Origin: an archaeon
GTDB lineage: Archaea > Aenigmatarchaeota > Aenigmatarchaeia > CG10238-14 > SCSR01
DNA: 30,416 bases
Direction of reading: 5' to 3'
NCBI GenBank assembly: GCA_035289185.1
Contig: DATDXT010000033.1
Coordinates: forward strand, 1 to 30,416
Shown here piece after piece: positions 3,374 through 22,996 of this stretch. The stretch's first letter is position 1. Each line of letters begins with the position of its first letter. Below the pieces are notes generated by a model. It saw only the letters and a list, made by a program, of their open reading frames with translations. It did no database searches and was not told the origin of the DNA. The position numbers and the translations under genes were made by a program.

Positions 3374-4159
3374 TCAAACCTTATTCAAAGATTTAGAGAA
3401 ACCATCTAGCTTCCCATCTATCACATCAAGCGCATCTTTAACAATCTCATGAGATTCAAGACTAGAAGCACTTTCAACATTGAAAATAAAACTCTCATGT
3501 ACAGGCTTCACCTGTATCTTTCCGTCGCTTACATCGACACATTTCATGCAAAGTATACAGTTCAAAGGTCTGTTCACAGCAACCTTGTCGCCTTTCAGAT
3601 CAAATACATTAACAGGACAGCTATCTACATGTTCCTTCTTCCCATGCAGATCCTTATCCACAGTTATTTCGGCTTTATTCCTATATCCAACAACAGCTCC
3701 CTGCCATTTGGCATGCTTCTTTCCTATACCAAGTTTTGCAACTGCAGTAAATTCTATCTCTTCACCTGTGTTGAACATCTCTGTTATCGGTATGTTGTCA
3801 AAAACAGGCTTTACGTCCTTGTCAGTCGTCTTTATGTCTCCAGAATAGACTATGCCAGGACCTTTCTTCTTCAAAATCAATTCCACTTGACAATTGCTGC
3901 ATCCTTTTCCATCACATTTGCATTCCTCAGGAAGATTGTAACTCTTCTCATCGAAAGTAAGAGGTATCTGTCCAAGTCGGTTTGCTATTATGTCATCGTT
4001 CAATGAAGAGCCGTTCTTTTTGAATTCGACTATATCTATTGCCATGGTCTTGACTTCAGAAATCATGATCCTTCTCAAAGCAGAGACCAGCGAGACTGGA
4101 GCATCTTCCACCAAAAAGCTCATGTCTTCCTTGTTTTTATGCAATATTTTCAATTCCAT
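3374..4159 (-). CDS. rpoD: DNA-directed RNA polymerase subunit D (Rpo3) with a Cys-rich Fe-S type domain
   Basis: 261 aa. N-terminus LVSALRRIMISEV, typical of Rpo3/RpoD. Cys clusters CKCDGKGCSNC and SCPVNVF...NCILCMKC. The ATG lies 3 nt after the rpoA'' stop (TGATAAATG). Confidence 0.9.
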   Translation of the reverse strand: MELKILHKNKEDMSFLVEDAPVSLVSALRRIMISEVKTMAIDIVEFKKNGSSLNDDIIANRLGQIPLTFDEKSYNLPEECKCDGKGCSNCQVELILKKKGPGIVYSGDIKTTDKDVKPVFDNIPITEMFNTGEEIEFTAVAKLGIGKKHAKWQGAVVGYRNKAEITVDKDLHGKKEHVDSCPVNVFDLKGDKVAVNRPLNCILCMKCVDVSDGKIQVKPVHESFIFNVESASSLESHEIVKDALDVIDGKLDGFSKSLNKV

Positions 4160-4162
4160 TTA

Positions 4163-5323
4163 TCATTCACCTTTCTTTTTCTTTTCTTTTTTCCTTATCA
4201 AAAGTTCGAACATTCCTGTACCTGCTGGTATGACTTGTCCTATCATTACATTTTCAAATATACCTTTAAGTTCATCCTTCTCATTCCTTACACTTGCCTT
4301 GACCAAATGTTTTATTGTCTCTTCGAAAGCGGCTCTAGCAAGGATAGAACTCTTGCCTCCTGCTACACCATACCTTCCAATAGCTTCCACCTTCCCTGAG
4401 AATGTCATGATGTCTCCCACCAAATTTATATGTCTGACATCTACATCCAATCCCTGTTCGTTCAATGTGTTTGTAGCTTCGTTCAAAACAGAATTCCTCG
4501 CAGCTTCCACACCCAAGACACTTTCAACTTCAAAAATATTGTTAGTAATGGTCCTTGTATCATCCACCTCTTCCAACTTCAGTATCTCTTCAAAGTTAGA
4601 ACCTACAGTATTTATCGTCCATTCTTCACCTTCACGTCTTACTATCGCACTGGTTATGCCTTTTATGCCTTCTACACTTGCGCTCAATATCTTTTCCCTG
4701 ACCTTCTTGATGTCGGTCTCTTCTTCAACTCCAAGCTTGTTCTTTGCAAGATTAGGCTTTATTATAATGTTACCGCTTTTCTCTTTGACATCGAATGCCT
4801 TCAAAATCTCTTTCAACTTCTTTGCAACAGTATCCAACTTCCTTTTTTCAGAAAGTTCCAGTTCAAGATTGTTCTCAGACAAGTTTATCGATATGTTGCT
4901 TATCACGTCTCTGACCCTCTTCTCGACAATCTCTTCAGCTAATCTTGTGGCATCTTCTTTGTTTTCGAATTTCTTTTTCAAGTAAATTGTAGTGAATGGA
5001 GTCTCCGGCTCCCTTTTTGCATCAAAAATTTCTATGAGTCTAGGCAAACCTTGTGTAACTTTTACACCGGCGGATCCTGCAAAGTGGTAAGCACGCATCG
5101 TCATCTGTGTAGAAGGTTCAGATATGCTCTGTGCAGAAATGATACCTATAGCTTCACCTGGTTCGAACCTTCTGATTATATATTCTCTCTTTACATCTTC
5201 AAGCAACTTCCTGCTCTGTTCAGCATCGAGTTTTCTATTCTTGACCACTTTATCAAAATCTTCCATCAGCTTCGGAGGAAGATCCACTTCAATCCAAAAG
5301 TTTTCTTGCGATTCTTTCGACAT
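4163..5323 (-). CDS. rpoA2: DNA-directed RNA polymerase subunit A''
   Basis: 386 aa with [28 protein letters not shown] (trigger-loop region). The ATG at 5323 overlaps the rpoA' end by 35 nt. An alternative GTG at 5287 lies 1 nt after the rpoA' stop and would give MDLPPKL... Confidence 0.92.
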
Positions 5324-7787
5324 CTACTCCACCTCTTTCTACTTTGGACGGATCTATCCCATCTCCGCCTGGGAAAAATTGCACTATGTTGTTTGAACTA
5401 TCCCTTACTGTACCATCGTATTCTACTTTCAAATCCTGCAATGCGCCTACAAGCCTTCTTTCCATGTAACCGGAATGTCTTGTCTTGAGAGACTTGTCCA
5501 TCAAGGATTCTCTTGAGTTGATTGCATCAAAAAAGAACTCGAAAGGCATAAGCCCATTCACGAAACCTCTTCCTACAAAACCACCTGTCTCCAAAGTCAC
5601 ATCTCCTTTTCTGAAATGAGGAAATACTCTTTGATAGTATCCTTTTTCTATCCTTTCGCCCATTATCATTTCCTGTCCGACCATTGCTGCAGTCTGTACT
5701 ATGTTGACTACATCTCCTCTTGCACCGCTTACAGCCATCTGCAACGTAGGATTGTCTTTCATATGTTTGGTGATGACGTCTCCAACCTCATTCAATGCTT
5801 TGTTGGCTCTTCTCTTGATCAATGTCTCTACACTTTCTTTCGGTGTCCTTCCCACCAAAATTTTCAATTCATTCTTCTTGTATTGCCTTAGCAAATCATC
5901 AGTCTCTGATTTAACCTGTACCAAGATATCTCTTACTTTTCTTTCTCCGCTCTCATCCAATGACTGATCTGATATGCTTATTGAAAATCCATGTTTCATC
6001 AAGAAGCTGAGAGAAAGCTTTGAAAGCTTGTTCAAAAATTCTATGACATATGCACTGCCGAACTGGTCGCCCATCTTGCTCAATATCTTTCCACTCTCTG
6101 CACCAACTGCGGCTTTATCAATATATCCTTCCTTTAACATACCATCTTCTATTACAACTTTTTCACCGGACTTGGCTCTGAATTCTATGAACAGTCCTTT
6201 AGGCAGGAAAAGACTCAATATCTCCTTTCCATTCATTTTGTTCTTGTCAGGTATCTCTATGTTCTGGTCAGCCGATCTTATCAGCTGTATGAAATCCTTC
6301 CTTTCCAATTCAGGATTGTACTTGGTCAAAAGATAAAGACCAGTTACATAATCTTGTCTCAATCCAATAATAGGACCGGAAAATCTGGGACTTCTCAAAT
6401 TCTTTTCTACAGACATCAAGTTCTCAGCTTCGACAATCGCTTCCTCTAATTGTGGTATATGCAAGTTCATCTCATCCCCGTCGAAATCTGCGTTATAAGG
6501 AACAGTGACTATAGGGTTCAATCTCAATGTCCTGTGGTCCAAAACCTTTACTCTGTGTGCCATTATACTCATCCTGTGCAATGATGGTTGGCGATTGAAG
6601 AAAGATATATCTCCATTGATCAAATGCCTTTCAACAATATATCCGGGAGATAATTCTTTTGTCAATTCCTTACCATTTTCAGCAGTTACCTTTTTCTTCC
6701 TAGCATCAGGTCTTATGATGTAGTTTGCACCAGGCCATACTTCAGGTCCACGCTCTACAAACTTCTTCACAGTTTCCAGATTTTCTGATGTTATCCTGAT
6801 AGGAACAGTCAATTCTTTTGCTATGACCATAGGCACTCCTACTTCATCTATGTCTATGAATGGGTCTGGACTGATTACACTTCTTGCACAAAAATTCACG
6901 CGCTTGCCAGCAAGGTTTCCCCTGAACCTGCCTTCCTTCGTCTTCAATCTCTGCGATAATGTTTTCAATATTCTTCTTGATCTGTGTCTTGCAGGAGGCA
7001 CGCCTGTAAGTTCATTGTCGAAATAAGTAGAAACGTGATATTGTACAAGCTCCCATAGGTCAACAAGTATGAAATCCGGCGCTCCCAATTCTATGTTCTC
7101 CCTCAACCTCTCATTTATTCTTACAATGTCTACAAGCTTGTGAGTCAAATCATCTTCAGACCTTTCTCCTGTCTCCAAAGTAATCGACGGTCTGACAGAA
7201 ACTGGAGGCACAGGGAACAATGTCAGGACAAGCCATTCTGGCCTGAAGTTCCTGAATCCCATTAATTTGAAATCTGCATCTGTGACCTTCTCCAACTTTT
7301 CCCTTATCTGCACAGCGCTCAATATCTCGCTGCCGTCTGCTATGCTGTAAGGCTTTATGAACTTCAACTTCCCTTGTTCGGCCTTGCAGTAGGGGCATTT
7401 CTTTTTGACAGCTTTTATCAGATCCTTCAAGCTGGTCTTCTTTTCTTTTGCCTTGTCCAATTCTTTTTCATCTATCATTATCCTGCTGCACTTTTTGCAT
7501 GTGACTTTCAAGATAGAGAAAATAATCTTTGCATAAAGAACATGTATGATAGGTTTTGTCAATTCTATATATCCAAAGTGTCCGTTGCAGTCACCGATAG
7601 TTCCACCACAAGTCCTGCATCTTATTCCAGGATCGACGACTCCCATTCTTGGATCCATTATGCCACCTTCTATAGGATAGCCTTCCTCATCATAAAGATC
7701 AGTCTTAGTAATCTTTGCCGCAGCCATCTTCTTTACCATTTCTGGATTTACTATTGTGAATTCTATCGAGTTAACTAGCATAATCAT
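5289..7787 (-). CDS. rpoA1: DNA-directed RNA polymerase subunit A'
   Basis: Contains the catalytic [10 protein letters not shown] motif and N-terminal zinc-finger cysteines (CRTCGG..C..H, CKKCSR). The ORF track starts at 7829. I prefer the ATG at 7787, which shares its A with the rpoB' TGA stop (TGATG). Confidence 0.93.
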
Positions 7788-9583
7788 CAAGTCTCCTTCA
7801 GATTTATCTTTGGATAGATAAGCATGCATTTCAATTCATCCAACATAAGTTTGAATGCATAGCTCATTTCCACCTCGACAACATTAGATTCATTGCACAC
7901 AACACAATACTTCTTGTTCTTGATCTTGTCTTCTATAGCTACAAGGCCACATGTCATGCAGACAGGAATCACTGCCTTGTCAGAATCAAATCTTTCCTTT
8001 AAAGCAAGAGCTGCACCGTGCGCTATCAAACAGTCCTTTTCCATTTCACCCAATCTCAATCCACCTTCCTTGCTCCTTCCTTCTGTAGGCTGTTTAGTGA
8101 GAAGTGTGACTGGTCCTCTTGATCTTGCATGTATCTTGTTTGAAACAAGGTGGTCCAATTTCTGGTAGAAGCAGTTTCCTATAAACATCAAAACGTTGAA
8201 ACCTTCTCCAGTCCTTCCGTTGTACATCATCTCCATTCCATCGCTTCTGTATCCATAGCTTGTTAGCATACTCTCAAGTTGCTTCTTGTCTGGTGAATTG
8301 AATGCTGGTGCATAAACATAATTTCCACTCAATGCCGCAACTTTTCCGGCAATTATCTCTAGCATCTTACCCATGGTCATTCTTGAAGGAATTCCGTGCG
8401 GGTTGAAGATTATGTCGGGTACAATTCCGTCTGAAGTAAACGGCATATCTTCCTGTGGTACAATCGCTGCTACCACACCTTTCTGTCCGTGGCGTGAAGC
8501 AAACTTGTCTCCGACTTCAGGCCTTTTGCTGTCTCTTACAACCGTTTTTATCAACATCGTCCCGTTTGAAGTCTCTGTTATAAAGACTCTATCTACAGTT
8601 CCTAAATCTCCATGCCTCAAAGTTACTGAAGTTTCTCTTATATTTTCAATTCCTGCGACGAACTGGTCTGCTGTCCCCAAGAATCTCAAAGGAGAAGTCC
8701 TTCCAATAATTACATCATCTCCTTGCACAACAGTTTCTGGATTCACAATACCGTCTTCTGGCAGATGTTTATAGGCATCCTCGCCAAGATACCCTTTCAC
8801 CCCAGCCTGAGGTATTCCTATCACATCTTCCTGTCCGCCCATGTATCTTTTCTTCTCAGATTCATAAGTCCTGTACATGAAAGACCATAGCAATCCACGC
8901 TCGACAGAACTCTTGTTGATTATTATTGCATCATCCATGTTGTACCCGTCAAAGCACGCTATTGCAATGACTATGTTGGTTCCGTTTGGATGGCTGGAAT
9001 AGTTGATAGGTTTGTGTATGAACGTCTGCACAAGAGGTGTCTGAGGATAAACCATAAGATTGGATTTAGTATCCACCCTGTTCAGGAAATTCGTTGAAAA
9101 AAGACCTATGCTCTGCTCTACCATTTTAGCGCCGAAGTTGACTCTGTCACCACGGTTGAATTCTGGAAAAGGTATAGTAGAAGCTGATAGACCTAAAATA
9201 ACTGATGGGTCAAGCTCAAGATGAGTATGATCCTTGTTAAGGTCGGCTTCTCTCAATGCGATATAAGTTCCTTCCTCCTCTTCAGAATCCAAATATTCTA
9301 TTACGCCATGCTTGACAAGTCCGTTCCAGTCGAGCTCTCCTTTCTTGACTTTTTCCAAAATCTCTTTGGTCAAAGTAGACTTACCATCATGTATAACAAT
9401 CAGTGGCCTTCTTACTCTTCCTCCTTCTGTCAAAATCTTGACTTCTTTCATATGTTCTAGATAAACGACATTTACTTGTTCAGACAATTTTCCATGTCTT
9501 CTAGCTTCCAATACATTGGCTACCAATTTCTTCGGATCGTTGGTCATCCCGACATATTTTCCATCTAAGAATATTTCTGCCAT
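7787..9583 (-). CDS. rpoB1: DNA-directed RNA polymerase subunit B' (C-terminal part of split B)
   Basis: 598 aa with FASRHGQKGVV and a C-terminal zinc ribbon CMTCG...CVVCNE. GGAGGG sits upstream of the ATG at 9583. Confidence 0.95.
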   Translation of the reverse strand: MAEIFLDGKYVGMTNDPKKLVANVLEARRHGKLSEQVNVVYLEHMKEVKILTEGGRVRRPLIVIHDGKSTLTKEILEKVKKGELDWNGLVKHGVIEYLDSEEEEGTYIALREADLNKDHTHLELDPSVILGLSASTIPFPEFNRGDRVNFGAKMVEQSIGLFSTNFLNRVDTKSNLMVYPQTPLVQTFIHKPINYSSHPNGTNIVIAIACFDGYNMDDAIIINKSSVERGLLWSFMYRTYESEKKRYMGGQEDVIGIPQAGVKGYLGEDAYKHLPEDGIVNPETVVQGDDVIIGRTSPLRFLGTADQFVAGIENIRETSVTLRHGDLGTVDRVFITETSNGTMLIKTVVRDSKRPEVGDKFASRHGQKGVVAAIVPQEDMPFTSDGIVPDIIFNPHGIPSRMTMGKMLEIIAGKVAALSGNYVYAPAFNSPDKKQLESMLTSYGYRSDGMEMMYNGRTGEGFNVLMFIGNCFYQKLDHLVSNKIHARSRGPVTLLTKQPTEGRSKEGGLRLGEMEKDCLIAHGAALALKERFDSDKAVIPVCMTCGLVAIEDKIKNKKYCVVCNESNVVEVEMSYAFKLMLDELKCMLIYPKINLKET

Positions 9584-11070
9584 TCTACTCCCTCCGTTTT
9601 CTTTATAACATTCTCCAAGTTAACAGTCACATCTTCACTTGTCCCTTTTGTGACCTCTGCTAAAATTGCCAAATATTTCCTCAGACCGATTGTCGCCCCT
9701 TCTGGTGTCTGGCTTGTACAGACTTTTCCCCAATGTGTAGGATGCAATTCTCTAGCCTCAAAATGTTCCTGTGTAGATGTAAGAGGAGAAAGTATGTTCC
9801 TCATGTGCGACAGTGTCTTTATGTAGCTTCCCCTATCCACACGCTGGCACACTCCTGTCCTTCCACCCACCCAGCTTCCTATAGCCATGGATGATACTAT
9901 CTGGTTTGTCAAAACGTTAGACTCAACAATAGCCTGCAGTGGTGGCATCCTTCCTCTCTTGGTAAGCTTCCTGTAGTTGTAGGAAACACGTGTCACGAGA
10001 CCCCACTTACCCAAGATTATAGACCTTAGCAAAATCTCCATCAAGTCCCCGGCCAATCTCAATCTCTTGTTTGAATAGTGGTCCAAGTCATCTTCTTCCA
10101 CTTTATCCAGATGCAGTTTTATCAGTTTCCCTATGGCTTTTGATAAGAACAATGCCTTCTTCAACCTGTCTTCTGGATTCTGGCCTAAATGTGGCAATAG
10201 ATATTTGTCCACAAGCTTTGTAGCCCTTTCTATCCTGTACTGCGGCTGTGGTATCTTCAAGTATTTTCCAATCTCTTCCAATCCTTCAGCTACATTTGCA
10301 GCCGTTGTTTCAAGAAGGTTTACATAGAACTCTTCTTGTACTTCAGGATCGTCTGAGACAGCTGTTACAATTTCCTTGTCGTTAGTCAAACCTAAAGCTT
10401 TCAACAAATAGACAACTGGCAATCTTGTTATGTTGGCGAAACTTATTGTCACCATACCGTCTATCTTCCTTTCCATCAAATGCCTTTGGACATACCCCTC
10501 TTTCTCAGAGTGTATCCTTGCTAGTTCTTCAATACTGCCACTAGAAACTTTTGCAGTTATTATCCTGTTGGGTGCTATCTCTTCCACAAGTACCAGCAAT
10601 CTTTCTGTTCCGTTTATGATGAAGTAGCCTCCTGGATCGTCTGGGTCTTCACCGACTTGTATAAGTTCATTCCTGTTCATTGGAGCAAGCGGACATAATT
10701 TGGACTTCAACATTATAGGTAGGTCACCGAAATTTATGTTCTTCGGTTCGCTTTGGATATTGTTCAAGACAGAAGTCATCTCCACGTACATCGGAGAAGC
10801 GTAAGTTATGTCTCTTATCCTTGTTTCAAGTGGAAGCACTGGTCTCAGAGAACCGTCTGCCTCTTTTGCCATCGGTCTTTCTATAGAAAACTTCCCAAGT
10901 TTTATCTTCAGATTTCCAAGTTCTGGTACGTCAGGTTTTATCGTCCCTATCTCTTCCAGAATCTTTGGTATCTTCCTGTCCAGAAAATCGTTGAAAGAAT
11001 CAACTTGGAATTTTACAAGGCCTCTCTCTTTGATGAAAGCATTCAACAATGAAACATAGGCCTCGTTCAT
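9565..11070 (-). CDS. rpoB2: DNA-directed RNA polymerase subunit B'' (N-terminal part of split B)
   Basis: 501 aa with GGYFIINGTERLLV. Overlaps the rpoB' start by 19 nt. The ATG is 4 nt after the rpoH stop. Confidence 0.95.
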   Translation of the reverse strand: MNEAYVSLLNAFIKERGLVKFQVDSFNDFLDRKIPKILEEIGTIKPDVPELGNLKIKLGKFSIERPMAKEADGSLRPVLPLETRIRDITYASPMYVEMTSVLNNIQSEPKNINFGDLPIMLKSKLCPLAPMNRNELIQVGEDPDDPGGYFIINGTERLLVLVEEIAPNRIITAKVSSGSIEELARIHSEKEGYVQRHLMERKIDGMVTISFANITRLPVVYLLKALGLTNDKEIVTAVSDDPEVQEEFYVNLLETTAANVAEGLEEIGKYLKIPQPQYRIERATKLVDKYLLPHLGQNPEDRLKKALFLSKAIGKLIKLHLDKVEEDDLDHYSNKRLRLAGDLMEILLRSIILGKWGLVTRVSYNYRKLTKRGRMPPLQAIVESNVLTNQIVSSMAIGSWVGGRTGVCQRVDRGSYIKTLSHMRNILSPLTSTQEHFEARELHPTHWGKVCTSQTPEGATIGLRKYLAILAEVTKGTSEDVTVNLENVIKKTEGVEWQKYS

Positions 11071-17664: not shown

Positions 17665-18969
17665 TTGGAGATATGTATAGTCAATTACGTGGATAAATCT
17701 ACATTGGAAACACTTGAGACAAAACTTCTTCTAGACAACGAAACCCGTGATGTATATGCCGCTCATAAAAGTGCGATAGAACTTTACATAGAAAACGAGA
17801 ATGACTACAGCCTTAAAGATCGTGTAAAGACACTGAAAGAAATAAAACTTCCAAACGACAAGCTTGACAGGATATATGAGAAGTACGGTCATACAGAGGA
17901 ATCTGCAGATATAGACGGATTAATAAGATACACCATAGGCGATGTGTTCGATGAACTTATCCAGGATGCCAAGAAAGCGGCTTTTGAGGAAGTCGACAAA
18001 AAGATAGTTGATGAACTATTATCCGACATAAAGGAAAAAGCAAGCTGCAGAAGAAGCATGTCCATCAGGGAAATTTTCTACGGTTTTAGGCACAACTTTT
18101 ACAAGGCTGGATATCTGAAAGATGTATACGATGGCATGCTATGCAAGGTAAATTACAATCTGTTGGGCAAGCATGAATACAGGGACATGAGAGTTTTGAT
18201 CAGGAGAAAGACTCCTATGTCCAAAAAAGTAGATGTGATTGCAATGTATGATGTCAAAAGAGATGCTGGAGATATAGTTCAGGGAATGACTTTCCTTGAA
18301 GACGTCTATGAAAATGAGATAAAAAAAGTAGTCCCAAACCCATCCAAACATTACGGAAAACCAAGATGGCTTACTAAAGGAGACATTACATTCTTTGCAA
18401 CTGTGGCTGCTTCTTATGCTATAACATCTGTCTTTCCTGGTATAGAAGGGATGCTTCATGATGGAGGGCCAATAAGGTTCCTGGGATATACATTAAATGC
18501 TGTTGGAATAGCTCCTGTCGCATTGGAAAAAGTAGGTGCAATCTATGTCTTGAAGAAAATAATCGGCAGACGTACAAGAGGATACATGAATAAGAGAACT
18601 CTTAATACAATAGCCAGAGGTTATGATATAGACAATTTTGGCCTTCTGGCAAACAAAGTTACGAAACAGCAATCCATAAGAGCACATCTTTGTTATGCGA
18701 CTATATGGCTATACCACGATGTTGATAAAAATACACTGTATGAAAGATTGAAAAGATATAACATTGAGAAAGACGAGATAGACGATTTTTTGGACATATT
18801 CGAAAATCATATTAGGATAGTGGAGATCGAGAATGACAAGTATACTCCAAACAAGATGTTGATAGACATACCTATATCCAAGATCTCAAAAATTGGCGTG
18901 AGCGAAAAAGTTAAAGTAATCAGCAATAGAGTAGACAGTCTTGAAAACGATTATCCTTTAAGTATTTAA
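17665..18969 (+). CDS. Hypothetical protein with a central pair of hydrophobic helices
   Basis: 434 aa. TTG start preceded by GAGGGT 8 nt upstream, and no early in-frame ATG. Hydrophobic stretches ITFFATVAASYAITSVFPGI and FLGYTLNAVGIAPVALEKVGAIYVL. No family motif recognised. Confidence 0.6.
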   Translation: MEICIVNYVDKSTLETLETKLLLDNETRDVYAAHKSAIELYIENENDYSLKDRVKTLKEIKLPNDKLDRIYEKYGHTEESADIDGLIRYTIGDVFDELIQDAKKAAFEEVDKKIVDELLSDIKEKASCRRSMSIREIFYGFRHNFYKAGYLKDVYDGMLCKVNYNLLGKHEYRDMRVLIRRKTPMSKKVDVIAMYDVKRDAGDIVQGMTFLEDVYENEIKKVVPNPSKHYGKPRWLTKGDITFFATVAASYAITSVFPGIEGMLHDGGPIRFLGYTLNAVGIAPVALEKVGAIYVLKKIIGRRTRGYMNKRTLNTIARGYDIDNFGLLANKVTKQQSIRAHLCYATIWLYHDVDKNTLYERLKRYNIEKDEIDDFLDIFENHIRIVEIENDKYTPNKMLIDIPISKISKIGVSEKVKVISNRVDSLENDYPLSI

Positions 18970-19391
18970 GCCGAAACTGGTTGTTTGTAGTAGTAAACAT
19001 TAGGAGGAGATCCTTCTGCCACCCCTGCGTTTTTAAAAGCGTTCCTGCCTTCATTCATCTTTAGCATGTATTTGTCAACCAAAAAGCGAAAATGATATCC
19101 GTCCTTGTTATATTCGACCCAAGCATCACCCTTGTTTGGTCCTCTGACTTTCATCACATATGGTCTTTTGCCATCGTGGTGCAATTTTATGTATATGCCA
19201 TTTTGATAAAGCTTTGCTGCTTCGTCTCTGTAATGCTCAAAATTTATACCTTCAAATTCTTTGATCATCTCTGGTGTGAACTCTGTATATAGTTCAGTGG
19301 TTAATTCTTTCATTGCAAACATCCGTAGACGGTACCTCAAAGTAGTCCGTTTGTCACTTAGGATACCTATAATATAATTGGTTTTCCCCAT
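18966..19391 (-). CDS. Hypothetical protein
   Basis: 141 aa with ATG at 19391. Its stop overlaps the stop of the convergent 434-aa gene (shared TTTAA at 18965-18969). No motif recognised. Confidence 0.5.
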   Translation of the reverse strand: MGKTNYIIGILSDKRTTLRYRLRMFAMKELTTELYTEFTPEMIKEFEGINFEHYRDEAAKLYQNGIYIKLHHDGKRPYVMKVRGPNKGDAWVEYNKDGYHFRFLVDKYMLKMNEGRNAFKNAGVAEGSPPNVYYYKQPVSA

Positions 19392-19549
19392 ATTTAAACA
19401 TAACTATTGCAATATCTATGTTCTCCCTAATCCTAATCATTGTAATCTTCCGACATATTTCCTAATTGTTCGACACTTCATACAATTATAGGAAAGTTCA
19501 TAGAAAAATGTTGTGTTTTTATTTGTTTGCAGACCAACAGATATTAGTT

Positions 19550-20890
19550 ATGGTATTGGAAGACCTTGGAGGAGGATTGAAAGCAGCTTTCAACAGGCTG
19601 GTATCCTCAGTCACAGTGGACAAGTCATTGATAGAGCAGACAGTCTCAGACATAAGAAGGGCTTTAATTCAATCAGATGTAAATCTCCAGCTTGCAAATG
19701 ATATTGCAGACAAAATAAAGAAAAGATCGATGGAGGAAAAGACACCTTCTGGCATGAGCAAGCGTGAACAAGTAGTAAAGATAGTATACGAAGAGCTCGT
19801 GAACATGCTTGGAAAGAAGTTCCAGCCATTGAAGCTTGACAAGAAACCATCCATCATACTTATGGCAGGCTTGCTTGGAGCAGGAAAGACCACAAGCACG
19901 GCCAAACTGGCAAGATACATACAGAAGCAGGGAAGGAATGTCGGAATCATAGGAGCAGACGTCTACAGACCAGCGGCTTTAGCGCAATTGGAACAGTTAG
20001 CAAAGCAGATCAACGTCCCAGTGTACGGTGAAAAGGGAAATAAGAATGCTGTGAAGATTGTAGAGAACGGGATGAAAGAGTTTGCGAAGAAAGATGTCAT
20101 CATTATCGATACAGCAGGCAGGTACAAGCAGTCAGAAGAGTTGATGAAGGAGATAAGGCAGATAGGCGAAAAGGTCAAGCCGGACGAGACCATACTCGTC
20201 ATCGATGCCACTATAGGACAGCAGGCCAAACAACAGGCTGAAGCATTCCACAAGGCAGTTCCGATTGGCAGCGTGATGATAACAAAGATGGATGGTACTT
20301 CAAAAGGCGGAGGCGCGTTGAGCGCTTGCAGTGTCACTGGAGCTAATGTCAAGTTCATAGGAATGGGAGAGAAGATAGACAGCCTTGAATTGTACGATCC
20401 TGACAGGTTTGTTTCCAGGATGTTAGGTTTGGGTGATTTGCAGACATTGCTGGAGAAGGTGAAGGAGACAGGAGTCAGCAAAGAATCAATGGAAAAGATG
20501 ATGGAAGGAAAATTCACATTGCAGGACTTCATAGAACAGATAGAGAATGTAAGCAAGGTAGGATCTTTATCGCAGATAGCAGGAATGATACCTGGGTTTG
20601 GCAGCGTGAAACTGCCTAAGGAAGCATTGGAGAAGCAGGAAAGAAAGATGAAGATATGGAAGTTCATAATCCAGAGCATGACAAAGAAGGAGAGAGAGGA
20701 TCCAGCGCTTGTTGATGCAGCTAGAATCAAGAGGATAGCAAAAGGTTCTGGCAGGCAGGAGATGGAAGTAAGGGAATTATTGAACCAGTACAGTTCAATG
20801 AAGAAGATGATGAAGGGACTTGGCGGAGTAAGAGGAATGGATAGGGGTCAGATGAAGGAATTGGCCAAGCAAATGGGATTGAAGTTTTGA
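19550..20890 (+). CDS. srp54: Signal recognition particle protein SRP54
   Basis: MVLEDLGGGLKAAFNRL..., GLLGAGKTTSTAKLA, DTAGR, TKMDGTSKGGGALS, and a Met-rich M domain. The ORF-track start at 19466 is a TTG, and the homologous N-terminus begins at the ATG at 19550. Confidence 0.95.
   Translation: MVLEDLGGGLKAAFNRLVSSVTVDKSLIEQTVSDIRRALIQSDVNLQLANDIADKIKKRSMEEKTPSGMSKREQVVKIVYEELVNMLGKKFQPLKLDKKPSIILMAGLLGAGKTTSTAKLARYIQKQGRNVGIIGADVYRPAALAQLEQLAKQINVPVYGEKGNKNAVKIVENGMKEFAKKDVIIIDTAGRYKQSEELMKEIRQIGEKVKPDETILVIDATIGQQAKQQAEAFHKAVPIGSVMITKMDGTSKGGGALSACSVTGANVKFIGMGEKIDSLELYDPDRFVSRMLGLGDLQTLLEKVKETGVSKESMEKMMEGKFTLQDFIEQIENVSKVGSLSQIAGMIPGFGSVKLPKEALEKQERKMKIWKFIIQSMTKKEREDPALVDAARIKRIAKGSGRQEMEVRELLNQYSSMKKMMKGLGGVRGMDRGQMKELAKQMGLKF
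20863..20890 (+). repeat. Direct repeat copy 1: the functional 3' end of srp54 (AKQMGLKF*)
   Basis: GGCCAAGCAAATGGGATTGAAGTTTTGA recurs at 21960-21987 with 23/28 identity by my manual alignment. Both copies encode AKQMGLKF-stop. Confidence 0.8.
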
Positions 20891-20897
20891 GTTATCA

Positions 20898-20913
20898 TGT
20901 AACACGTGTTACA
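20898..20913. promoter_or_regulatory. Perfect 16-bp palindrome TGTAACACGTGTTACA
   Basis: Read directly from the sequence, 8 nt after the srp54 stop. CACGTG core. Confidence 0.6.
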
Positions 20914-20921
20914 CAGCCAAA

Positions 20922-20968
20922 TTTTGTAGTCACCTATATACAAAAAGTTTATATATTGTAGTCACCTA
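20922..20968 (+). repeat. Two direct copies of TTGTAGTCACCTA flanking the fic TATA box
   Basis: TTGTAGTCACCTA occurs at 20924-20936 and 20956-20968, 32 bp apart. TTTATATA (20948-20955) lies between them. The second copy sits between the TATA box and the ATG. Confidence 0.8.
20948..20955 (+). promoter_or_regulatory. Putative TATA box for fic
   Basis: TTTATATA lies 22 nt upstream of the ATG at 20978 (leaderless geometry). Confidence 0.45.
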
Positions 20969-20977
20969 ATACTTATT

Positions 20978-21928
20978 ATGCACGTGGAAATAAGGAACGT
21001 TGGCAGAAAGAAAAAATATTACCTTGCACACTCATTCAGGCATGATGGGAAGGTCAAAAAGTTCAGATTTTATCTTGGAACTGATTTGACAAAAACAGAA
21101 TTAAACGACAAAATAAAACACGCAAAGGAAATTTTGGATGAGAGGATAAAAGCATATGGAAAAGTAGGAGACCCGTTCTATACAGTTATTACATCCAAAG
21201 AATTGGAATATGTAAAACATCTGGAAGATAAATACAGGATGGAAGAAATAAAAGTTTTGCACCTGTCTGAAAAAAACTGGGCCGAATTTACAAAAGCATT
21301 CACATACGATACCAATGCCATAGAGGGATCCACCGTGACTTTTACAGAAGTCTCTGACATATTGGAAAAAAAAGAATGGCCTAAAGAAAAGCAAAAATGG
21401 GAGATATCTGAAACATATGGAGTTGCGGAAGCCGTTGATTTCATAAGAAATTCTAGGGAAGACATCTCTTTAAAATTGATAAAAGAACTCCACAGGATTG
21501 TGTTCAAGAATTCCAAGGATTTTGCAGGCAAATTCAGGAAGAATGGAGAGGAGGTCGCTGTAGTGGACGCCTTTGGCAATATAAAACATAGAGGAGCCCC
21601 ATCATCGCAGATTGTCAGGCTTCTTAATGAATTGATACGTTGGTATGGCAAAAACAACCGGAAATATCCTGCATTGGTGTTGGCTGCTGTGGTACACAAT
21701 CATTTTGAAACTATACATCCATTCAAGGACGGAAATGGGAGAGTCGGAAGGCTTTTGTTGAACAACATATTGTTGAAGCACGGTTTGCCGCCCGTCAACA
21801 TAGAGCTGAAAAGCAGGCAGGAATACTACAGGGCACTGCAGGAATATCAAAAAATGAGGAATCTTCGACCAATGATAGAGCTTATATTGAGAGAATACAG
21901 GAGATTTATGAAAAGCCTGAACAGGTGA
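20978..21928 (+). CDS. fic: Fic-domain protein (AMPylator-type), class II with an N-terminal inhibitory helix
   Basis: 316 aa. Canonical Fic motif HPFKDGNGRVGR (HxFx[D/E]GNGRxxR). Upstream inhibitory motif TNAIEG ([S/T]xxxE[G/N]). Confidence 0.92.
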   Translation: MHVEIRNVGRKKKYYLAHSFRHDGKVKKFRFYLGTDLTKTELNDKIKHAKEILDERIKAYGKVGDPFYTVITSKELEYVKHLEDKYRMEEIKVLHLSEKNWAEFTKAFTYDTNAIEGSTVTFTEVSDILEKKEWPKEKQKWEISETYGVAEAVDFIRNSREDISLKLIKELHRIVFKNSKDFAGKFRKNGEEVAVVDAFGNIKHRGAPSSQIVRLLNELIRWYGKNNRKYPALVLAAVVHNHFETIHPFKDGNGRVGRLLLNNILLKHGLPPVNIELKSRQEYYRALQEYQKMRNLRPMIELILREYRRFMKSLNR

Positions 21929-21954
21929 CTACATTTCTATGTTTTGTAGTCACC
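21924..21954. repeat. Perfect 10-bp inverted repeat GGTGACTACA-N11-TGTAGTCACC (hairpin) overlapping the fic stop codon
   Basis: Read directly from the sequence. The left arm contains the fic TGA (21926-21928). The right arm is the same TTTTGTAGTCACC found at 20922-20934. Confidence 0.8.
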
Positions 21955-21959
21955 CAGTC

Positions 21960-21987
21960 GGCCAAGCAGATGGGATTGAAATTCTAG
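21960..21987 (+). pseudogene. Displaced remnant of an srp54 3' end (AKQMGLKF*)
   Basis: GGCCAAGCAGATGGGATTGAAATTCTAG. It differs from 20863-20890 only at CAA/CAG, AAG/AAA, TTT/TTC and TGA/TAG, which are all synonymous or stop-to-stop. Confidence 0.7.
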
Positions 21988-21995
21988 AAATCCAT

Positions 21996-22958
21996 CTATT
22001 TTAGATAGTTGTAAATGGTTCTAGATACATTGCTGGCTGTTTCACTGAAATCTTTTTTTGTTGTCCCAGAACTCATTATACATAACATATAAGGTTTGTT
22101 TGGTGCATAGATTATTCCACAATCATGATAGCTTTTTGTAGGACCCCAATCGCCTATCTTATGAGCCACTTTTATATTGTCTGGCAAACCAGATACTATT
22201 CCGTAATCAAATTTTGTATCTGAAAGCAGAGAAAGTATAAAGTTAGAAAATGTTCTTCTAAGATAGGCAGAATAGTATAAAGCGCGTAAAATGTTCATAT
22301 AATTTTTTGGAGTGATTGCAGTCGAACTTATATCAGGCGAAAATGAGGGTGGAGGAAGTCCCATTGCAATATAAGCTTCTGCCAGATCGCCATATGTCAG
22401 TTGTCTGACAAGTACATTGTATGCTGTGTTATCAGATTCGTTTATAACAAAGTTCAGAGCAGATTTCACATCAATGTCATATCCATATCCCTTAGAAGCT
22501 AGACTGCCAAATGTAAGATTAGGTTCTATATCAGCCTCGGAAATTGTCAATTTTGTTTCCATAGACAGGTAGCCATCCTCTAATTTTTTTACTATAGCGA
22601 TCACTGCTGGAGTTTTAAGTAGGCTTGCTGGTACGAACATATCCCTTTCATTAATTCCAAACCATGCTCCTGTTATAAGGTCTTCAAAATAAATACCATA
22701 ATGGCCTTTTGACGAGTTTGTTATTTTCTCAACTTCTGTTTTTAATGGTGTATACGAAACTGTAAGGTATTGTTGTCCCCGAAGAAAATTATTCACTTCC
22801 ATACTTGCTGTCTGAGGATCAATGAGTGCATAATTATCAGAACGGTCTCTTTCCCAAGAGTTGCTTATGATGTAAACTATGAGCGAAATATTTATAACAA
22901 CCATTATAGAAAACCAAAACTTGAGAGATTTCAAATCTATTTCAATTTTAGACACCAT
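21996..22958 (-). CDS. Class-A beta-lactamase-like / penicillin-binding-fold serine hydrolase with an N-terminal membrane anchor
   Basis: SxxK (ASLLK), SDN (ESDNTAYN) and KTG-like (HKIGD) motifs in the right order and spacing. N-terminal TM segment FWFSIMVVINISLIVYIISN. The ORF-track start at 22967 is TTG, and the ATG at 22958 is preferred. Confidence 0.72.
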   Translation of the reverse strand: MVSKIEIDLKSLKFWFSIMVVINISLIVYIISNSWERDRSDNYALIDPQTASMEVNNFLRGQQYLTVSYTPLKTEVEKITNSSKGHYGIYFEDLITGAWFGINERDMFVPASLLKTPAVIAIVKKLEDGYLSMETKLTISEADIEPNLTFGSLASKGYGYDIDVKSALNFVINESDNTAYNVLVRQLTYGDLAEAYIAMGLPPPSFSPDISSTAITPKNYMNILRALYYSAYLRRTFSNFILSLLSDTKFDYGIVSGLPDNIKVAHKIGDWGPTKSYHDCGIIYAPNKPYMLCIMSSGTTKKDFSETASNVSRTIYNYLK

Positions 22959-22966
22959 TTCTACCA

Positions 22967-22996
22967 ATTATACAATAAATAGATTTATTGTATAAT
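22967..22996. promoter_or_regulatory. 30-bp near-perfect palindrome ATTATACAATAAAT-AG-ATTTATTGTATAAT in a divergent promoter region
   Basis: Two perfect 14-bp arms (22967-22980 and 22983-22996), checked base by base. Lies between the serine-hydrolase ATG (22958) and the trmY ATG (23015). Confidence 0.75.

Follow-up and report, generated by a model that had tools for sequence, protein, structure and literature searches.

The window analysed here, i.e. the whole 30,416-nt stretch of contig DATDXT010000033.1 from an archaeon of the Aenigmatarchaeota (assembly GCA_035289185.1), carries a fic gene between srp54 and a convergent gene of the beta-lactamase family. Four exact copies of the 10-mer TGTAGTCACC, referred to as Fic boxes 1–4, surround fic (Table 1), and pattern search recovered no further exact copy in the window. 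With up to one mismatch allowed, 8 matches were counted against 1.32 expected, and as 0 of 100 shuffled sequences reached this number, chance does not account for it; the clustering of the motif around fic is real and strongly non-random. Boxes 1 and 2 lie on either side of the promoter, in which an A-rich sequence resembling the B recognition element (BRE), CAAAAAG, precedes the TATA box TTTATATA (20948–20955). The centre of the TATA box is located about 26 nt 5′ of the fic ATG (20978), which fits a leaderless transcript, and the srp54 stop codon is 87 nt away from this ATG. Boxes 3 and 4 form an inverted pair, a perfect 10-bp stem with an 11-nt loop, and the fic stop codon TGA (21926–21928) is embedded in its left arm as GG-TGA-CTACA. 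Two 13-mers overlap the boxes: TTTTGTAGTCACC at 20922–20934 and 21942–21954, and TTGTAGTCACCTA at 20924–20936 and 20956–20968. The coordinates of the 13-mers, of the stem-loop and of a palindrome upstream of box 1 had been given in a preliminary description made from the sequence of the window; re-reading, pattern search and refolding of the stem-loop reproduced every one of them, and the restriction of the 10-mer to the surroundings of fic as well.

Homologous loci (designated by L numbers) were fetched by protein similarity alone, using a profile of Fic homologues against reference genomes. Boxes of the form TGTRGNCACC were present at the same places in all 11 relatives with 42–59% amino acid identity, which came from Aenigmat-, Pace-, Woese- and Nanoarchaeia and one metagenome-assembled genome (MAG) of the Nitrosopumilales, and 5 more loci at 61–70% identity had the exact layout of the window. 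Box positions were counted in a set of 73 DPANN loci with a near-full-length Fic. The proximal box, at about −21 from the ATG, was found in 66 of 70 loci, the distal box, at about −52, in 54 of 70 (46 direct, 8 inverted), and the 3′ pair, which overlaps the stop codon, in 54 of 68; an extra inverted box at about −74 occurred in 12 loci. Throughout 156,981 nt of protein-similarity loci, 28 of 28 exact 10-mers fell into cassette zones and 0 elsewhere, and once the loci were aligned on the ATG or on the stop codon, conservation reached precisely as far as the outermost boxes. When metagenomes were scanned for the inverted pair, at least 119 loci were obtained, with spacings of 11–12 nt vastly over-represented and most matches adjoining a Fic gene. 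The preliminary description had named a scattered motif, or homologous fic loci devoid of it, as observations that would speak against its significance; the loci do carry the motif, at defined positions. The motif signature is that of a widespread, probably self-regulated Fic cassette of DPANN archaea, and a literature search found no published description of this cassette or motif.

Table 1 Features of the fic cassette and its borders (positions within the 30,416-nt window)
Feature	Position	Strand	Basis or remark
srp54 (SRP54)	19466–20890	+	Open reading frame and family call
Functional srp54 3′ end (AKQMGLKF-stop), left repeat copy	20863–20890	+	Sequence comparison
Spacer, 34 nt, from srp54 stop to box 1, holds the palindrome	20891–20924		Conserved in no other cassette
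Fic box 1, distal, about −52/−53 from ATG, just 5′ of BRE and TATA	20925–20934	+	Left limit of conservation
Promoter core, BRE-like CAAAAAG and TATA TTTATATA	20941–20956	+	Essentially all related loci have TTTAWATA between the boxes
Fic box 2, proximal, −21 to −12 from ATG, between TATA and leaderless start	20957–20966	+	In 66 of 70 loci
fic gene, 316 amino acids	20978–21928	+	Translation, Pfam, alignment, model
Fic box 3, left arm of the 3′ inverted pair, contains fic stop	21924–21933	−	Pattern search
Fic box 4, right arm of the 3′ inverted pair	21945–21954	+	Right limit of conservation
Relic srp54 3′ end (SAKQMGLKF-stop), right repeat copy	21960–21987	+	Sequence comparison
Beta-lactamase-family gene, convergent	21996–22967	−	Native downstream neighbour, outside the cassette

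The fic product matched the Fic domain PF02661 at 77.2 bits (cut-off 24). The catalytic motif HxFx(D/E)GNGRxxR is present as HPFKDGNGRVGR (residues 247–258) and invariant in 32 homologues; the inhibitory-helix motif (S/T)xxxE(G/N), present as TNAIEG (residues 112–117), is invariant in the homologue alignment and is located on the same chain, N-terminal to the Fic core. An N-terminal inhibitory helix is reportedly what defines class II Fic proteins. Residues ~100 to 305 constitute a class II, FICD-like AMPylase core with the Fic fold, and the enzyme, showing all the defining features, is predicted to be a class II Fic AMPylase. In the AlphaFold model (predicted local distance difference test score 90.5), residues 1–65 fold into three antiparallel β-strands plus a helix; this very basic region is a putative DNA-binding domain. 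No Pfam family was found for this 65-aa N-domain, structure comparison of the model gave weak matches only, AP2 and the integrase arm-binding domain among them, and a profile of the domain retrieved only 191 relatives from 1.84 billion representative proteins. Arm-binding domains have the same strand-strand-strand-helix topology as the N-domain, and the lambda Int arm-type consensus, (C/A)AGTCACTAT, shares AGTCAC with the Fic box; both points are regarded as leads, not as evidence.

The N-domain also heads proteins other than Fic: some have a PEP-utilizer mobile domain, one has a class II aminoacyl-tRNA synthetase core, and one is a membrane protein. In one of these non-Fic genes the promoter reads TTATGTCCACAT – TATA – ATGTGCCCATAA – 9 nt – ATG, and another has two direct GTACGTCCACAT boxes, 30 nt apart. 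Its presence in non-Fic genes that encode the N-domain ties the box-TATA-box plan to this domain rather than to the Fic domain, and this is the best argument for binding of the boxes by the N-domain and for repression of the gene by its own product. By the same comparison the N-domain appears to be a portable self-regulation module that is also placed on other effectors. In more distant Fic homologues at 31–37% identity (Pacearchaeota, Halobacteriales, Thermoplasmata, Bathyarchaeota and some bacterial MAGs) the order is half-site, about 20 nt with TATA, inverted half-site, about 12 nt, ATG. Their half-sites differ from the Fic box (ATGTAGTCATA, GTGTGCCCATAA, TGTAGCCATAC, TGTAGACGTA, TGTAATGGTA), and the half-site class follows the signature of the second β-strand of the N-domain: KYYLAHSFR is found with TGTAGTCACC, YFYLQHSFR with TGTAATGGTA, and YYYRxRSVR with TGTAGACGTA and related half-sites.

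We consider it likely that the boxes are binding sites for the N-domain of the cassette's own Fic, the 5′ boxes providing negative autoregulation and insulation from srp54 read-through. Being located 5′ of the predicted transcription start, the 5′ boxes must act on DNA. The N-terminal domain would recognise the Fic box TGTAGTCACC at the two 5′ sites, which bracket the BRE/TATA of the leaderless promoter and the polymerase entry region, and bound Fic would exclude TBP, TFB and RNA polymerase from the promoter and also stop read-through from the highly expressed srp54. In this way the gene for a SoFic-like and potentially toxic class II AMPylase would be negatively autoregulated, and both autoregulation and insulation could be useful to such an enzyme when it lands in arbitrary contexts. 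Archaeal repressors of the MDR1, LrpA, Phr and TrmB type bind at or just past the TATA box and block recruitment of the polymerase. The proximal box occupies the comparable position, as had been noted in the preliminary description, and keeps it in nearly all loci; unlike these repressors, Fic belongs to an unrelated family and has a second set of putative sites where its gene ends, and regulator and target would move together. Several points weigh against this reading. The covariation of half-site and N-domain is confounded by phylogeny, and the distal box in the window is direct, not inverted, where a simple symmetric-dimer operator predicts otherwise. An operator alone leaves unexplained both the second pair at the stop codon and the solo hairpins that outlive the gene, and the occurrence of the N-domain on a protein resembling an aminoacyl-tRNA synthetase (P0349) means that it could be a general nucleic-acid binder.

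P0349 (342 aa) consists of the N-domain, a lysine-rich linker and a class II aminoacyl-tRNA synthetase core (ProRS-like); either a nucleic-acid-binding domain is genuinely appended here, or the gene call has fused a remnant of a cassette to the synthetase. Four consecutive paralogues of ~470–580 aa with a C-terminal PEP-utilizers mobile domain were found at L308 1–4737 (Logan SRR29366204); at least one of them (P0346) begins with the Fic-type N-domain and has a putative inverted-repeat/TATA operator of its own.

The 3′ end of srp54 is present twice at the locus, a feature missing from the preliminary description. A 28-nt imperfect direct repeat consists of GGCCAAGCAAATGGGATTGAAGTTTTGA at the end of srp54 and GGCCAAGCAGATGGGATTGAAATTCTAG downstream of fic (left and right copies in Table 1), of which 23 of 28 positions are identical and all five differences keep the peptide AKQMGLKF and a stop codon. 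The right copy begins 5 nt past box 4, and 8 nt separate its end from the stop codon of the beta-lactamase-like gene. The srp54 end recurs after fic, and fic therefore lies inside a 1,097-nt insertion that splits the srp54 3′ end; this repeat-bounded unit contains fic only. A 1.03-kb unit of boxes, promoter, fic and boxes would have been inserted 28 nt before the end of srp54, bringing in a replacement end and leaving the old one as a relic. In L209, the closest srp54 relative (81% identity), CAG and the TAG stop are found as in the relic, which on these two positions is probably the original srp54 end. Relatives of srp54 at 78–81% identity have the same upstream synteny (prefoldin, ftsY and an open reading frame (ORF) of 434 aa) and no fic; their downstream synteny differs from that of the window, so they do not provide a true empty site. 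Neither an empty site nor a circular form was found for this locus; 10 of 10 contigs with an identical neighbouring protein, from 8 samples, were occupied, and L306, seemingly empty by gene calls, was occupied too.

The neighbouring genes of the cassette vary between loci and are often housekeeping genes. Flank duplication was assessed by comparing upstream and downstream similarity against a shuffle null in 64 cassettes that had 150 nt or more of sequence to either side: 17 exceeded the 99th percentile of the null (~0.6 expected) and 13 its maximum. The duplicated part is the last 28–59 nt of the upstream protein gene, including the stop codon, in the window, L157 and L166, and the 3′ end of a tRNA in L013, L097 and L145. 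The protein-gene relics keep frame and stop, with 9 synonymous-type versus 5 non-synonymous codon changes when the three loci are pooled, and the stop codons differ between the copies (TGA/TAG, TAG/TAA). This is in keeping with two orthologous gene ends joined by inter-lineage transfer, and not with a decaying target duplication. In 5 loci the right copy starts 4–5 nt past the last box, which makes for a precise right junction; the left copy ends 17–38 nt before the first box, so this junction varies. Taken together, these comparisons indicate that the whole 1.03-kb unit is a horizontally mobile cassette; the insertion with its relic and the diversity of contexts are shown, the mode of mobility is inferred.

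A tentative explanation, which we regard as possible but would not favour, is that the boxes, especially the 3′ module GGTGACTACA-N11-TGTAGTCACC, serve as att-like recombination sites, at which cassettes would be inserted, excised and stacked by a recombinase acting in trans or by host recombination. This role and that of an operator would not be exclusive, as transposon ends may both bind the protein of the element and regulate its promoter. The limits of conservation at the boxes, the changing neighbours, the flank duplications and the precise right junction all fit it, and so do solo hairpin modules, which exist without fic: in L129 a solo hairpin is located 30 nt past a gene, and past the orthologue of that gene in L105 (82% identity) come hairpin, promoter, fic, hairpin and relic. 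In L189, two unrelated fic genes stand in tandem, and their 3′ ends are dissimilar up to an identical 34-nt block, the limits of which coincide with the hairpin module and two copies of which flank a complete 1,005-nt cassette. In addition, ‘type B’ loci have a full hairpin before the promoter, which is how the junction of a circular cassette would look. Against this stands the lack of an integrase or transposase, which was found neither in the cassette nor anywhere in the 30-kb window nor recurrently among the neighbours of ~45 cassettes. Short target duplications at the box edges were not seen in L007–L011, L019, L105, L123 and L162, the left junction is variable, an 11-nt spacer is unsuited to the core sites of tyrosine or serine recombinases, and all contigs of this locus were occupied. 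Some solo hairpins are plainly decay products, the one in L146 being attached to a 43-aa fic remnant and that in L191 to one of 50 aa, absent from its relative L131. The TTTT extension of the 13-mer was rejected as a crossover core; it is no general feature of related cassettes, whose left flank is unlike their loop end. The homologous recombination of the host could act here, with a circular intermediate that bears a copy of the target 3′ end. If excision is ongoing, the hairpin-circle junction would read ...GGTGACTACATTTCTATGTTTTGTAGTCACCTATATACAAAAAG..., the repeat-circle junction ...GTAGTCACCCAGTCGGCCAAGCA[A/G]ATGGGATTGAA...TGAGTTATCATGTAAC..., and the empty site ...GAAGGAATTGGCCAAGCAGATGGGATTGAAATTCTAGAAATCC....

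Further arrangements were recorded among the collected loci. At L158 700–810, two promoter boxes are followed by 20 nt and the 3′ hairpin, the fic ORF being gone, apparently by internal deletion. In two related genomes the 37-nt sequence CATCGTTGAGTATTGGCAGGGTATCGACGAGTATTGA is found on opposite sides of the cassette, downstream in one and upstream in the other (L214 ~3990–4030, L216 ~2900–2940), as expected if flanking DNA travels or a circle opens at different points. One tRNA species (3′ end ...GGGTTCAAATCCCACATCCCGCGCCA) was located 12–130 nt from hairpins or cassettes in several unrelated metagenomes (solo hairpins in L107, L110 and L125; cassettes in L097, L099 and L145), and its recurrence suggests that insertion there is preferred. 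Solo hairpins had heterogeneous neighbours (PIN, RHH, Bro-N, MNT-like, tRNA endonuclease) and several of these hairpins carried fic remnants; other gene families bracketed by the motif were rejected. Rfam searches of the duplicated flanks in L009, L094, L157, L114, L102 and L105 gave no structured RNA.

That the 3′ pair works at the RNA level, as a terminator or a hairpin stabilising the 3′ end of the fic mRNA, is unlikely. The perfect 10-bp stem folds as RNA at −21.1 kcal/mol (z = −5.4), and in most relatives the pair is situated directly at the stop codon, both as such a function would have it. Archaeal termination relies on oligo-T. The T-tract that together with a GC-rich stem would make an intrinsic terminator is missing here, CAGTCGGCC following the stem instead, and a terminator scan did not flag the site. 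Fully complementary arms were found in only 3 of 11 protein-similarity loci; the mismatches are true ones (A·C, A·A, A·G) and are located at degenerate positions which also vary in the 5′ boxes. In distant relatives (L007, L008, L011 and L019) the 3′ boxes are ~20 nt apart with a TATA-like filler, like the 5′ operator, and in L007 28 nt of the promoter are repeated in the 3′ module. The identical 10-mer also stands 5′ of the transcription start, where RNA structure is irrelevant. Among relatives the stop codon sits in either arm (GG-TGA-CTACA or TG-TAG-TCACC), and the boxes are thus not a coding constraint.

We read the 3′ pair as a second set of protein-binding sites, at the other border of the unit, rather than a selected RNA structure. 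Bound by Fic, it would probably act as a roadblock or looping partner; it could block convergent or read-out transcription, pair with the 5′ sites by looping, mark the border of the cassette, or do several of these. Of the three readings offered in the preliminary description, operator sites are favoured by the comparative data for the two 5′ copies, and a cassette-type element by the limits of conservation, the srp54 relic, the varied contexts, the solo hairpins and the tandem array, albeit with no recombinase found; the terminator or RNA-stability hairpin was not upheld. The same fate befell the CACGTG palindrome that it had placed alongside the motif. This 16-nt sequence, TGTAACACGTGTTACA (20898–20913), begins 8 nt past the srp54 stop, is confined to L001, L204 and L205, all from the same organism, and is missing from all 200+ other loci, and was rejected as a part of the system.

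It is improbable that the srp54 duplication and the cassette are the leftover of a larger, integrase-bearing virus or plasmid, with the boxes a mere promoter feature. Direct repeats derived from the 3′ ends of tRNA or protein genes, as in L013, L097 and L145, are the classical footprint of an integrase, and an integrase-like ORF lies within 1–3.5 kb in 2 loci (L003 and L151). At least 6 independent loci, differing in their targets, nevertheless have a repeat-bounded unit of just 1.03–1.17 kb, and repeated decay to exactly the same single gene is unlikely. Moreover, the relic copies with their kept frame and stop point to orthologous ends and not to an old scar, and catalogued viral contigs (IMG/VR) contained no relative above 33% identity. 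Three viral motif matches, high in GC, were chance-like or unrelated iterons, and viral carriage was rejected. Within an ORF of an IMG/VR contig of 61% GC (L083 2800–2990 and L143 13650–13830), at least five copies of GTGACTACA follow one another every 13 nt, and one inverted pair is present as well; these repeats look like iterons and are probably unrelated to the archaeal cassette. We consider very remote the notion of a new kind of autonomous element, in which Fic with its sequence-specific N-domain would bind both ends and perform or recruit DNA breakage and joining, the insertion taking place at gene 3′ ends and at resident hairpin modules and the Fic-fold enzyme acting as, or with, the recombinase.

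With N-domain-bound boxes as the preferred reading, the cassette was compared with known systems. SoFic is a single-gene anti-phage defence system (bioRxiv 10.1101/2022.05.11.491447). Its PADLOC model matched the Fic core of the window at 2.7e-35, and the NCBIfam equivalog reached 44 bits against a cut-off of 550; SoFic has a C-terminal winged-helix domain, which the Fic of the window lacks, having the 65-aa N-terminal β-sheet domain instead. Unlike SoFic and FICD, the Fic of the window is archaeal (DPANN) and flanked by boxes of its own. Mobile mystery protein B was the best NCBIfam match, below cut-off, and the mobile mystery pair A-B (helix-turn-helix regulator plus Fic) resembles the cassette in coupling a DNA-binding regulator, here putative, to Fic. 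A further likeness to mobile mystery pairs and autoregulated toxin-antitoxin systems is the variable or mobile position near PIN, HEPN/MNT and RHH genes. Unlike in those pairs, a single polypeptide is involved, the binding domain is not a helix-turn-helix, the putative operator straddles an archaeal TATA box, and a second pair is placed at the stop codon; fic is the sole ORF between the boxes with no adjacent antitoxin gene, and the unit does not constitute a type II toxin-antitoxin operon.

Insertion sequences are similar in size (~1 kb), in the one ORF that fills the unit, in the same, here putatively protein-binding, sequence at both ends, in that the left end holds the promoter and the right terminal repeat the stop codon, and in the many insertion contexts; in many relatives a 10-bp terminal inverted repeat without mismatch is made up of the outermost boxes (GGTGACTACA ... 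TGTAGTCACC). Relatives of types B and C have these boxes inverted, while the left outer box of the window is direct, and unlike insertion sequences the cassette has no DDE, HUH, tyrosine or serine recombinase domain and no short target duplications, and is seen in one copy per locus. Integron cassettes are likewise single-ORF units bounded by an imperfect palindromic module, with solo modules and, in L189, an array sharing the module. The Fic unit has its own TATA promoter, a motif and size unrelated to attC, no IntI or attI and no integrase in the window, and is not an integron cassette; unlike in integron arrays, the units are scattered singly beside housekeeping genes. Integrative elements at gene 3′ ends are resembled by the window, L157, L166, L013 and L097 in the imperfect repeats of the last 24–59 nt of a target gene that is kept intact, and the window has attL/attR-like repeats of the target 3′ end. 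In contrast to such elements, the unit is ~1.1 kb, no integrase was found inside it, and its targets are many and different. The cassette combines known kinds, an autoregulated toxin or defence gene and a mobile cassette, and is not categorically new unless Fic drives its mobility.

We know of almost no gene regulation that has been worked out in DPANN archaea, and of no genetics. The cassette offers a compact module of regulator, operator and effector that is widespread in this group, in which a 65-aa putative DNA-binding domain has predictable, co-evolving target boxes, and its pairs of box and protein make a directly testable case of archaeal autorepression at the TATA box. It would further mean that core housekeeping neighbourhoods receive a SoFic-like defence or toxin gene in the form of a self-insulated 1-kb cassette, the target here being the end of the essential srp54 gene, which a replacement end repaired. 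As there is no recombinase on board, the concrete question arises how small archaeal genomes acquire such genes.

The remaining 30-kb surroundings consist of core housekeeping genes (RNA polymerase subunits, fibrillarin/Nop5, FtsY, FtsZ and CCA-adding enzyme). A tRNA search of the window gave no hit, and the composition of the cassette showed no anomaly. The large RNA polymerase subunits are split (B″ + B′, A′ + A″; 4163–11070), as is usual in many archaea, and this confirms that the window is archaeal. Between ftsY and srp54 (17665–19391) lie two ORFs without a Pfam family. The 434-aa ORF (17665–18969) is kept at the same position in relatives at 78% identity (L206–L208). In place of the 141-aa ORF on the minus strand (18966–19391), which overlaps it, L206–L208 have an 87-aa Fe-S biosynthesis protein, and by this comparison 18966–19391 appears to be a second variable spot, adjoining srp54.

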